Positions 2,451 to 3,530 of a stretch of 9,017 nt of DNA are shown here, in pieces. Each line of letters begins with the position of its first letter. Within the stretch, counting starts at the first letter, position 1. Below the pieces are notes generated by a model. The model ran no database searches, was not told the origin of the DNA, and saw nothing but the letters and a program-made list of their open reading frames with translations. Where the stretch lies: the IMG/VR virus record IMGVR_UViG_2693429549_000020, positions 1 to 9,017 of that record. One strand, given 5' to 3'. The DNA is from a virus. Its lineage: Duplodnaviria > Heunggongvirae > Uroviricota > Caudoviricetes. The translations under genes and the position numbers were made by a program.

Positions 2451-2496
2451 CTTAAAAAAGCAAAGCCCCGCAAGTGTCATTACCACTCGCAGGGCT
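2451..2496 (-). terminator. Hairpin with U-tract on the minus strand (orphan intrinsic terminator)
   Basis: Stem 2464-2476 pairs with 2484-2496 (11 of 13 positions), loop 2477-2483. On the minus strand it is followed by UUGCUUUUUUAAG (reverse complement of 2451-2463). No plausible minus-strand CDS lies to its right. Confidence 0.4.
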
Positions 2497-2696
2497 TCTA
2501 ACCACCAACGATAGCGAAAGTATCGAGGTAGCTATGTTAAATCATACCACACACCCGCAAGGGCGGGACTCGCACAACCTGAATAAAGCGGGTATGAAAA
2601 ACCAGTTGATCGCCACTGCCAGCCAGGGCTATGATTCGCGTGCACCTTATAAAACGGGTGCCGGGATTAGGACCCCGCTGGAGTTACAGGCGATAC

Positions 2697-2719
2697 AGAC
2701 GCCGCACGCGTCTTTTTTT
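2697..2719 (+). terminator. Intrinsic terminator / attenuator (module A)
   Basis: Stem AGACGC (2697-2702) / GCGTCT (2708-2713), loop CGCAC, followed by a T7 run (2713-2719). Confidence 0.6.
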
Positions 2720-2884
2720 GTATCGGCGCACACGCACACCTCAACAATGGTGGGCTGTATGGGGCCGACTTCGGTCGGGCTGGTTTCCTGTAACGCCAGT
2801 AGTCCTAACCCTGTACAGTCCACCGCCAGCGAGCTTAGGACCTCCGGCGGTGGGTATATCCCAACGTTACAGGAGGCTGCCAAC
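2720..2884 (+). ncRNA. Structured leader A with anti-SD segment (putative c4/CI-like regulatory RNA region)
   Basis: UUCG-loop hairpin CCGAC-TTCG-GTCGG (2765-2778). Conserved GCTGGTTTCC (2779-2788). Segment 2786-2795 TCCTGTAACG is perfectly complementary to 2865-2874 CGTTACAGGA, which overlaps the SD AGGAGG (2871-2876) of the downstream ORF. A partial third copy of the target, GTTACAGG, sits at 2683-2690. Exact RNA ends are unknown. Confidence 0.45.
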
Positions 2885-3073
2885 ATGGCTACTACCCCTA
2901 CCCTCGTACATTCTCAGACTGCCTTTATCTGGCGCTTTATTGCCTTTGGCGCGTCAGAACATCAAATCATCCACGTAACCGCCTGGACGGAACGCGAAGC
3001 GCGTAGCCGTTGCCCGTCTGGTTGTGTTGCTGTATTCGCTGCCCGTATTCGTCAGGGGTCACATCATGCTTAA
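2885..3073 (+). CDS. Small protein, Icd-like (host cell division inhibitor-like) family, copy 1
   Basis: ATG at 2885 with SD AGGAGG 8 nt upstream. 62-aa product MATTPTLVHSQTAFIWRFIAFGASEHQIIHVTAWTEREARSRCPSGCVAVFAARIRQGSHHA. It is a paralog of the 3360..3530 product (shared W-R-F core and ARIRQ..SHA C-terminus). The Icd-like assignment is from memory of how such small proteins are annotated in P4-like prophages. Confidence 0.6.
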   Translation: MATTPTLVHSQTAFIWRFIAFGASEHQIIHVTAWTEREARSRCPSGCVAVFAARIRQGSHHA

Positions 3074-3157
3074 AAACCGCTTGCACAAAATTATCACGAG
3101 GCTGTATTCTTCCTGTGTCGCCCACATGGCGACCGGGTTTAGCAGCCTGAATAAATT

Positions 3158-3194
3158 GGCGGACAGCCGCCCATATCCGATAAGCGGTTTTTTT
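3158..3194 (+). terminator. Hairpin(s) plus T7 run (module B terminator/attenuator-like)
   Basis: GGCGG-ACAG-CCGCC hairpin (3158-3171), then CCGC/GCGG pairing and a T7 run (3188-3194). The stem is weaker than in module A, but the T-run sits exactly 166 nt before the downstream start codon, the same as in module A. Confidence 0.4.
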
Positions 3195-3359
3195 GTGTCC
3201 GTAAACCTACCCATACCCGCATTATGGCGGGGCGTAACGGGGGAGCCTTTGCGCTCGCTGGTTTCCCAATTTGCCAGTCTGCTAACCCTGTTACGTCTCG
3301 CCACCCCGTTTAGCAGCGTAGTAGCGAGACTCCTTAACATTAAATTGGGAGCCTTTCAC
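3195..3359 (+). ncRNA. Structured leader B with anti-SD segment (paralog of leader A)
   Basis: Conserved GCTGGTTTCC (3257-3266). Segment 3264-3272 TCCCAATTT is perfectly complementary to 3342-3350 AAATTGGGA, which overlaps the SD GGGAG (3347-3351). A partial target copy AAATTGG sits at 3153-3159. Motifs GCCAGT and CTAACCCTGT are shared with leader A. Confidence 0.4.
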
Positions 3360-3530
3360 ATGGCTGTATTCACACGCCCTTACTTTGTCTGGCGCTTTAT
3401 GCAGTGCCACGGTAAAAACATCCGCCTTCACACCGTTACCGCCGCCAGTGAGCACGAAGCCCGTGCGCAACTGCCGCACACACACCTTATTTTTATTGCC
3501 CGTATTCGTCAGGAGGTGAGCCATGCATGA
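3360..3530 (+). CDS. Small protein, Icd-like family, copy 2
   Basis: ATG at 3360 with SD GGGAG 8 nt upstream. 56-aa product MAVFTRPYFVWRFMQCHGKNIRLHTVTAASEHEARAQLPHTHLIFIARIRQEVSHA. Stop TGA 3528-3530 overlaps the next gene start (ATGCATGA). Confidence 0.6.
   Translation: MAVFTRPYFVWRFMQCHGKNIRLHTVTAASEHEARAQLPHTHLIFIARIRQEVSHA

Follow-up and report, generated by a model that had tools for sequence, protein, structure and literature searches.

In a stretch of 9,017 nucleotides (nt) of Caudoviricetes DNA (IMG/VR record IMGVR_UViG_2693429549_000020; hereafter the window), two short open reading frames (ORFs) that match the family labelled 'host cell division inhibitor Icd-like' (NF033153) stand one behind the other, and each closes a leader that contains no stop codon in the frame of the short ORF below it. 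Why should these leaders be open? The original prediction, made from the sequence alone, had favoured constraint at the RNA level and had left room for N-terminally extended proteins, for translation through the leader as part of the regulation, and for frames that are a mere by-product of GC-rich structured RNA. Our analysis indicates that both leaders are probably long frames laid over small immunity RNA genes, that is, the eta/kil model of satellite P4 applied twice in tandem. Both leaders hold RNA genes whose pairing is specific to each copy, the locus is homologous to P4 eta/kil, open frames of this kind are enriched across the family of related loci, and the leaders lack protein-type constraint. 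The locus is a tandem, heteroimmune new example of a known regulatory design and not a new mechanism. We refer to the two copies as modules 1 and 2, to their short ORFs as Icd1 and Icd2, and to their antisense RNAs as C4-1 and C4-2 (Table 1).

Both frames are present in the program-made ORF list (2474..3073 and 3024..3530), and the distances from their first positions agree with the earlier count of 137 codons ahead of the ATG of Icd1 (2885) and 112 codons ahead of that of Icd2 (3360). The stop-free stretches exceed these figures: upstream of ATG 2885 the nearest in-frame stop is the TAA at 2453-2455, which leaves 143 open codons (from 2456), and upstream of ATG 3360 it is the TAA at 2976-2978, which leaves 127 (from 2979). 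Openness in that frame was reproduced by 0.3-0.4% of dinucleotide-preserving shuffles for leader 1 and by 0.6-2% for leader 2. Each leader in this window is fused in frame to its short ORF, so that long ORF 1 spans the internal promoter, the isrK element, C4-1 and Icd1, and long ORF 2 spans the module 2 RNA elements and Icd2. The three in-frame starts of long ORF 1 (GTG 2474, ATG 2534 and a further ATG at 2594) all lie upstream of the internal promoter, and ATG 3066 of long ORF 2 lies upstream of the promoter-like element that aligns with it in module 2. The start of long ORF 1 is likely ATG 2534, with a GAGG Shine-Dalgarno (SD) sequence at 2525-2528; the resulting form of 179 amino acids (aa) has 100% identity to a called protein (P0001).

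The RNA function of both leaders is well supported by Rfam matches, module-specific pairing, co-varying target sites and covariation within C4. The isrK element of module 1 and both C4 RNAs exceed their Rfam gathering scores, and the corresponding upstream element of module 2 gives two matches below gathering, one to c4-a1b1 (RF03163) at 3104-3153, which begins at the -10 of the promoter-like element, and one to isrK (RF01394) at 3117-3194. Each C4 RNA has two recognition segments (2786-2795 and 2802-2808 in C4-1; 3264-3272 and 3279-3285 in C4-2, whose specificity is unlike that of C4-1) with exact complementarity of 7-10 nt to two pairs of sites in its own module. The upstream pair lies in the isrK or a1b1 element (2667-2673 and 2683-2690 in module 1; 3139-3145 and 3153-3159 in module 2), and the downstream pair ends in a site that overlaps the SD of the short ORF (2865-2874 over AGGAGG at 2871-2876; 3342-3350 over GGGAG at 3347-3351). 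No complementarity of 7 nt or more was found between either C4 and the targets of the other module. The isrK element of module 1 contains an intrinsic terminator (2697-2713 followed by a T-run), and module 2 has a hairpin and T-run at about 3165-3195. In relatives the three pairing sites change together, TTAGCC / GGCTAA / TTAGCC in locus L001 standing where the window has TTAGGAC / GTCCTAA / TTAGGAC, and compensatory changes on both sides were seen in 14 of the 18 predicted C4 pairs among 41 C4 sequences. Together with the flat codon-position variability described below, these results confirm the RNA-level constraint that had been proposed.

The relation between these RNA genes and the reading frame was then evaluated across loci chosen solely by a DNA pattern of the C4 core, blind to frame (19 viral and 68 metagenome loci, almost all confirmed by the C4 profile, which formed 43 clusters at 90% identity). 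In nearly all of them an SD-preceded ATG, the regulated ATG, is found 44-58 nt past the C4 3' end. At least 100 open codons precede it in its own frame (f0) in 16 of the 43 clusters, compared with 2 and 0 in the other two frames (f1 and f2) and with a shuffle expectation of 1.8 per frame, which is conservative because the search pattern forces a TAA and so always closes one frame. The corresponding P-values (binomial, 2e-11; Fisher, f0 against f1+f2, 2e-7) are optimistic, since clusters at 90% identity are still phylogenetically related, and this caution has to be counted on the opposite side of the balance. The frame is open through all of C4 in 25 (f0), 16 (f1) and 3 (f2) clusters, with 9.9 expected per frame from the shuffles, and frame-open cases were seen with all three values of the C4-to-ATG distance modulo 3. 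Upstream, the open frame continues beyond the RNA genes and the internal promoter by tens to hundreds of codons; in 8 of 13 aligned lineages, P4 included, it extends beyond the internal -35, into sequences that are unrelated between lineages. These counts suggest that read-through of an immunity RNA is common in the C4 family, environmental sequences included, but not universal, and as far as we could find the literature holds no earlier quantification of such frames. That all frame-open lineages have a -35-to-ATG distance divisible by 3 was rejected as independent evidence, because the pattern follows from the openness itself; the conserved RNA motifs carry stops in the other frames.

Two further arrangements were observed in the surveyed loci. 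Soil-metagenome contigs L067 (819-1397), L045, L038 and L068 carry three or four head-to-tail C4-like copies, most of which have no ORF start at the usual position after the RNA. In L008 (at about 3682-3823; also in L043, L052 and L074) the spacing of SD and Kil start differs by 2 nt, so that the 'Ash' frame no longer coincides with that of Kil; it is nevertheless free of stops over 209 codons upstream and 134 codons downstream and covers the whole of kil.

The closest known counterpart of the locus is the eta/kil region of P4. The 199-aa eta ORF of P4 (8168-8767, minus strand, MMM start) contains an isrK match (8615-8692) and the C4/CI RNA (8420-8507), and its last part is the 65-aa Kil (MATTLTPSH...). 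The end of the kil/eta ORF, annotated as 8168-8584, is overlapped by the following gene, epsilon (7888-8175). Long ORF 1 matches P4 Eta by BLASTP (3e-9, 34% identity over 111 aa), and the DNA of the window aligns with that of P4 from the -35 to the stop. The two share the order of internal promoter, isrK/seqA match, terminator, C4/CI RNA, target with SD and short Kil/Icd-like ORF, the short ORF being in both the 3' end of an ORF of about 199 aa that begins upstream of the internal promoter, and in both a P4-type primase lies downstream. According to the account given in PMC10111431, citing Forti et al. 1999 (J Bacteriol 181:5225), P4 has a constitutive promoter, situated within eta, whose transcript is terminated through interactions of CI and seqA and gives rise to CI; Kil is Eta in truncated form, only an upstream late promoter allows full-length Eta to be translated, and this translation prevents the termination. 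The same article reports that the Rfam C4 and isrK models detect relatives of CI and seqA in Gram-negative phage-inducible chromosomal islands (PICIs).

The internal promoter of module 1 is the counterpart of P4 P_LE. It is the sole sigma-70-like match in a consensus scan of 2150-3800, lies inside long ORF 1 and aligns with the -35 and -10 of P4 and of 11 other loci; transcripts from it would start at about 2642, the 5' end of isrK. The aligned element of module 2 matches the consensus more poorly and was not called by the scan. P4 differs from the window in having a single module, whereas the window has two in tandem with different RNA specificities, and in having a terminator and CI that lie about 70 nt further apart. 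In P4, moreover, no second long ORF begins at an ATG that overlaps the stop of the first Kil/Icd, as it does here, and the late genes of the window are PICI-like rather than P4-like.

From the homology to P4, a two-state mechanism can be proposed. In the quiescent state, the internal promoter and its weaker counterpart in module 2 would start transcripts downstream of the long-ORF start codons, so that the leader would stay untranslated. Most of these transcripts would end at the isrK terminator, and those reading through would yield C4 RNA, which would pair with the a1b1/seqA and a2b2/seqC targets and cover the SD of the Icd/Kil-like ORF; without ribosomes on the message, transcription would stop before the replication genes. 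On activation, transcription from further upstream would let ribosomes load at ATG 2534 or 2594, and at ATG 3066 in module 2, and translate straight across target sites, terminator and C4 and on into the Icd/Kil frame. The ribosome trailing the polymerase would block the terminator hairpin, C4 pairing and Rho loading, and the operon (Icd1, Icd2, ORF75, DUF4222 and primase) would be expressed despite immunity. The strongest C-over-G skew of the region (-0.467) falls at 2880-2939, at the start of Icd1, and this C-rich, rut-like stretch is only suggestive of a Rho-related signal.

The second module would be coupled to the first through Icd1, which takes the place that the alpA homologue has in P4. 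ATG 3066 of long ORF 2 overlaps the Icd1 stop (ATGCTTAA), and therefore ribosomes that end Icd1 can reinitiate and read through leader 2. This overlapping start (ATGNNTAA) is kept in all 9 of the 9 module-2 relatives, and the ORF that begins there always crosses a1b1, the terminator and C4 and is in frame with Icd2 in 7 of them. With a further overlap at the Icd2 stop (Table 1), a nearly gap-free translated path can be traced from 2534 to the primase gene, as far as the sequence goes.

The same junction may record how the array arose. ATG 2594 (MKNQLIA) aligns with the coupling ATG 3066 of module 2 (MLKNRLHKI), and in five long-form relatives (P0037, P0048, P0085, P0091 and P0099) an Icd-like remnant (YIWRFIALSTAQPRVITIEATSEQEARQ) stands directly before 'KNQLIA' (compare window 2534-2611). 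Module 1 was probably once placed after another Icd-like gene, so module arrays would grow and shrink. In two module-2 relatives, L028 (9816-10312) and L083 (6535-7031), the C4-2 loop CCCAATTT is unchanged, but its match to the b-site targets (AACATAG, in both the upstream copy and the one at the SD) has been lost.

Several observations weigh against the tandem eta/kil reading. The starts of transcripts, their translation and the termination or anti-termination at this locus are all events that we infer. The coupling of eta to an alpA homologue seen in P4 does not recur, as the alpA gene of the window is parted from long ORF 1 by two minus-strand genes, and since the two are not adjacent, a P4-like coupling to alpA is impossible here. 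The upstream promoter that long ORF 1 needs was not called by the consensus scan of 2150-3800. A candidate nevertheless lies at 2386-2437, a divergent region adjoining the Arc-like gene, where a 17-nt direct repeat (TTGACAAGTGGTCACCT / TTGTTAGGTGGTCACCT, 35 nt spacing) accompanies the hexamers given in Table 1; it might serve as operator and upstream promoter and so be the source of transcripts covering the start of long ORF 1. In relatives L028 and L083 a +1 indel leads into another open frame, which ends 49 nt before the regulated ATG; the indel and the loss of the b-site match occur in these same two loci, where module 2 may be decaying or retargeted. Copy 1 is also open over the RNA genes in a second forward frame (2610-2978) and in a minus-strand frame (2647-2886), which makes the openness seen in this one window count for less than the comparison across loci. 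Finally, the frame is closed in 18 of the 43 clusters, and the conserved TAA of the C4 'CTAACC' is as common in the regulated frame as in the remaining two (11, 12 and 14 of 37), so in-frame fusion is lineage-specific and not a universal requirement of C4.

The last two of these points would be expected if the leaders were never translated and GC-rich structured RNA genes simply happened to lack stops, the openness being kept by RNA conservation. Such a by-product would also agree with the flat codon-position variability of both leaders, with the strong covariation of C4 and with the near-invariance of the module-2 RNA segment (pairwise difference 0-0.06, against 0.165 for Icd2). It leaves unexplained, however, why long open stretches concentrate in the frame of the regulated ORF, why the openness extends upstream of the RNA genes and promoter through sequences unconserved between lineages, and why the start overlapping the preceding stop is kept in every module-2 relative, and it sits poorly with the translation of P4 eta and Gifsy-1 orf45, which was shown experimentally according to the accounts in PMC10111431 and PMC4825925. 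Given the excess of 16 clusters over 2 and 0 and the homology to P4 eta/kil, the by-product scenario of the original prediction is not supported, and we consider it unlikely. The same enrichment and homology make regulatory translation through the leader the best-supported reading.

A different question is whether the frame is kept for its product. Codon-substitution comparison of leader and short ORF, as the original prediction had asked for, gave different patterns for the two. The variable sites at codon positions 1/2/3 are 43/42/45 in leader 1 (about 79 columns per position) and 19/18/11 in leader 2 (96 columns), with no coding-type pattern, compared with 18/17/26 in Icd1 (57 columns) and 14/15/29 in Icd2 (55 columns), both with a third-position excess. 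The peptides GLVSCNASSPNPVQS and SLVSQFASLLTLLRL, quoted earlier as an example of changes that do not preserve amino acids, were both found and come from the same conserved C4 nucleotides; a 1-nt indel that follows GCCAGT puts the conserved CTAACCCTGT into a different frame in each copy, so that one copy encodes P-N-P-V there and the other L-T-L-L. AlphaFold, run on a shallow alignment of 34 sequences and taken here as supporting evidence only, left residues 1-127 without secondary structure and with a predicted local distance difference test (pLDDT) below 50; only the Kil/Icd part was structured, as a beta-beta-alpha-beta unit (pLDDT 62-68).

These data bear on the 'Ash' annotations that cover the same DNA. 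Long ORF 1 matches Pfam PF10554 (Phage_ASH) over residues 53-147 (2e-12, 47.9 bits against a cut-off of 26), a segment encoded by the DNA of isrK, C4 and the SD region; long ORF 2, whose C4 is read partly in another frame, has no Pfam match at E 0.01 or better. PGAP calls an 'ash family protein' over this DNA in many Escherichia coli genomes, often flagged as incomplete or frameshifted, more than 1000 long-form proteins have been called, and the leader part is matched by PHROG families with a transcriptional-regulator annotation. Because the Phage_ASH match covers exactly the isrK and C4 DNA, conservation at the RNA level can explain the conservation of the family. As a protein domain, Phage_ASH shows neither coding-type substitutions (43/42/45) nor a predicted fold, a negative that is suggestive and not final given the shallow alignment. 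An exception to the lack of constraint on the peptide is that the long form begins with 18 residues (MLNHTTHPQGRDSHNLNK; window 2534-2590) that are nearly invariant in 34 relatives although they lie outside the RNA genes, which could reflect a DNA or RNA signal or recent spread; between lineages the N-terminal leader parts are unrelated. A 'frameshifted' PGAP flag on long ORF 2 of the closest relative was set aside as evidence against translation, as the leader is open there and it is the 3' end of Icd2 that differs.

An Eta or 'Ash' N-terminal domain with an activity of its own, for example as a regulator of the Bro network, for whose sake the frame would be maintained, could draw on the Pfam and PHROG matches, on the number of long forms called, on the near-invariant first residues in the 34 long forms and on the description of P4 Eta as a translated product in the account of PMC10111431. 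It has to contend with the missing third-position excess in both leaders, the reading of the same nucleotides in different frames by the paralogous copies, the failure of long ORF 2 to match Pfam, the unrelated N-termini, the unstructured prediction for residues 1-127, and a Pfam match that is exactly the DNA of two RNA genes. We therefore find little support for the functional extended isoform that had been left open, and judge it improbable. The leader peptide does not appear to be under selection, and the best reading is that RNA sequence and structure on one side and a stop-free frame for the downstream ORF on the other are both selected, while the leader peptide is not. Of the original interpretation, then, RNA-level constraint stands and regulatory translation through the leader gains most; the by-product and the functional isoform recede.

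For annotation, the labels 'ash family protein', Phage_ASH and the 'transcriptional regulator' PHROGs sit exactly on two Rfam RNA genes without protein-type constraint, which is relevant to thousands of enterobacterial prophages and satellites. A wider proposal may well be true, though we stop short of calling it probable: that the 'Ash' family (PF10554) is not a protein domain but the conceptual, and also actual, translation of isrK/seqA and C4/CI RNA genes; that stops are avoided in the C4 family only for the benefit of ribosomes that override the immunity RNA; and that here two modules of different specificity, chained by stop/start overlaps, would form a translation-opened double lock on replication.

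The immunity systems of P1/P7 and Gifsy-1 offer two further comparisons. The immI operon of P1/P7 comprises the c4 antisense RNA, its a1b1 and a2b2 targets, icd and ant (Rfam RF01695, RF03163). As in the window, the C4 RNA there is cut from the transcript of its own targets, two recognition segments pair upstream and downstream, with the downstream site covering the ribosome-binding site of the Icd-like ORF, and the start of the next gene overlaps the Icd stop. The coupling of icd to ant was not reproduced, however, as no Ant family match was found downstream, where Icd1 is followed by the second module and Icd2 by the 75-aa ORF, DUF4222 and primase. In the P1-like phage L004, unlike in the window, the frame upstream of icd is open for 65 codons only and falls short of the promoter.

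In Gifsy-1, orf45 follows the IsrK terminator, starting at nt 107, and lies over the C4/CI-like STnc1160 region (Hershko-Shalev et al. 2016, PMC4825925). The same study showed by SPA-tag western blot that orf45 is translated, that its nucleotides are conserved while its amino acids vary, and that expression of anrP requires orf45 translation, the orf45 stop overlapping the anrP start (AUGA). The window has the same order of an isrK RNA with terminator and a C4/CI-like RNA under an ORF, with the stronger isrK match in module 1 (Table 1). It differs in that its leaders are fused in frame, in place of a 45-aa ORF with a post-terminator start and an AUGA end, and in that the downstream gene, an antirepressor in Gifsy-1, is not one here. 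Leader ORFs that run through C4 and end in ATGA on the regulated start, as in the Gifsy-1 design, were found in 5 of the 43 clusters.

Gifsy-1 nevertheless suggests another route for module 1, in which translation would start at AUG 2747, a conserved codon at the 5' end of C4, once isrK had remodelled the read-through transcript in trans, giving a 108-aa isoform with no need of an upstream promoter. In its favour, the isrK of module 1 exceeds its gathering score, AUG 2747 and ATG 2885 share a frame, and orf45, starting just past the IsrK terminator, activates its downstream gene by being translated (PMC4825925). The counterpart AUG of module 2 (3224) is out of frame, however, and in L028 and L083 its ORF stops after 29 codons; a start at the C4 AUG would also leave the openness upstream of C4 and of the promoter unexplained. 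We see only a slight chance that this route applies. The AUG at the C4 5' end was also considered as a general start of leader ORFs and rejected, as from it 12 of the 43 clusters fuse in frame, 2 end in ATGA and 21 stop inside the leader.

The P4-type mechanism thus remains the reading that explains a long stop-free frame over conserved RNA without conservation of amino acids, and it would here be extended to a PICI-like satellite with two tandem heteroimmune modules; none of these findings overturns the current understanding of such systems.

Table 1. Positions of the elements of both modules and of the neighbouring genes in the window
Feature	Position	Strand	Details
Integrase	1-1239		
AlpA / AlpA-like ORF	1562-1858		
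Arc-like gene	2201-2392	-	
Candidate upstream promoter/operator region	2386..2437	+	TTGACA (2386-2391), 18-nt spacer, TAGCCT (2410-2415)
Long ORF 1, Eta-like frame	2474..3073	+	199 aa from GTG 2474; ORF list
Internal sigma-70-type promoter	2606..2635	+	TTGATC, 18-nt spacer, TATGAT; predicted
isrK / seqA-like RNA element	2642..2718	+	Rfam RF01394, 63.2 bits vs gathering score 50
C4-1 antisense (CI-type) immunity RNA	2743..2830	+	Rfam RF01695, 79.2 bits vs gathering score 45
Downstream C4-1 targets region	2835..2876	+	Sites 2835-2841 and 2865-2874; exact complementarity, 7 and 10 nt
Icd/Kil-like short ORF 1 (Icd1)	2885..3073	+	62 aa; NF033153 at 3.7e-17
Long ORF 2	3066..3530	+	154 aa from ATG 3066; frame of listed ORF 3024-3530
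Promoter-like element, module 2	3081..3110	+	TTGCAC, 18-nt spacer, TATTCT; by alignment with module 1 promoter
a1b1 / isrK-like element	3104..3195	+	Below gathering: RF03163 42.7 bits, RF01394 37.6 bits
C4-2 antisense immunity RNA	3220..3308	+	Rfam RF01695, 74.0 bits vs gathering score 45
Downstream C4-2 targets region	3310..3351	+	Sites 3310-3316 and 3342-3350; complementarity
Icd/Kil-like short ORF 2 (Icd2)	3360..3530	+	56 aa; NF033153 at 3.5e-15
Next ORF (ORF75)	3523..3750	+	75 aa; ATG 3523 overlaps Icd2 stop (ATGCATGA)
DUF4222	3756-4043		
P4-type primase	4040-5788		
SSB	6332-6754		
Protease-capsid fusion	7101-9017		7101 onward, runs off the window

By their sequences, the neighbouring genes identify the element as a P4/PICI-like satellite prophage. 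The ORF at 7101 joins a ClpP-type prohead protease to a major-capsid-like C-terminal part in a protein of at least 638 aa, and because of this fusion the element is PICI-like in its late genes and looks like a capsid-forming PICI and not like a P4-type satellite.

Two minor observations concern the DNA upstream of module 1. A 15-bp hairpin at 2462-2498 (within 2452-2498), with a T-run on the minus strand, resembles an intrinsic terminator that faces leftward; the 5' end of long ORF 1 contains it, GTG 2474 is part of its stem, and no minus-strand gene ends there. A 210-aa plus-strand ORF (1869-2501) overlaps two minus-strand genes called by PGAP in a relative, and in L001 (at about 2150-3428) the frame of Icd1 runs through those genes without a stop for 426 codons; both are probably artefacts of frames antisense to them.

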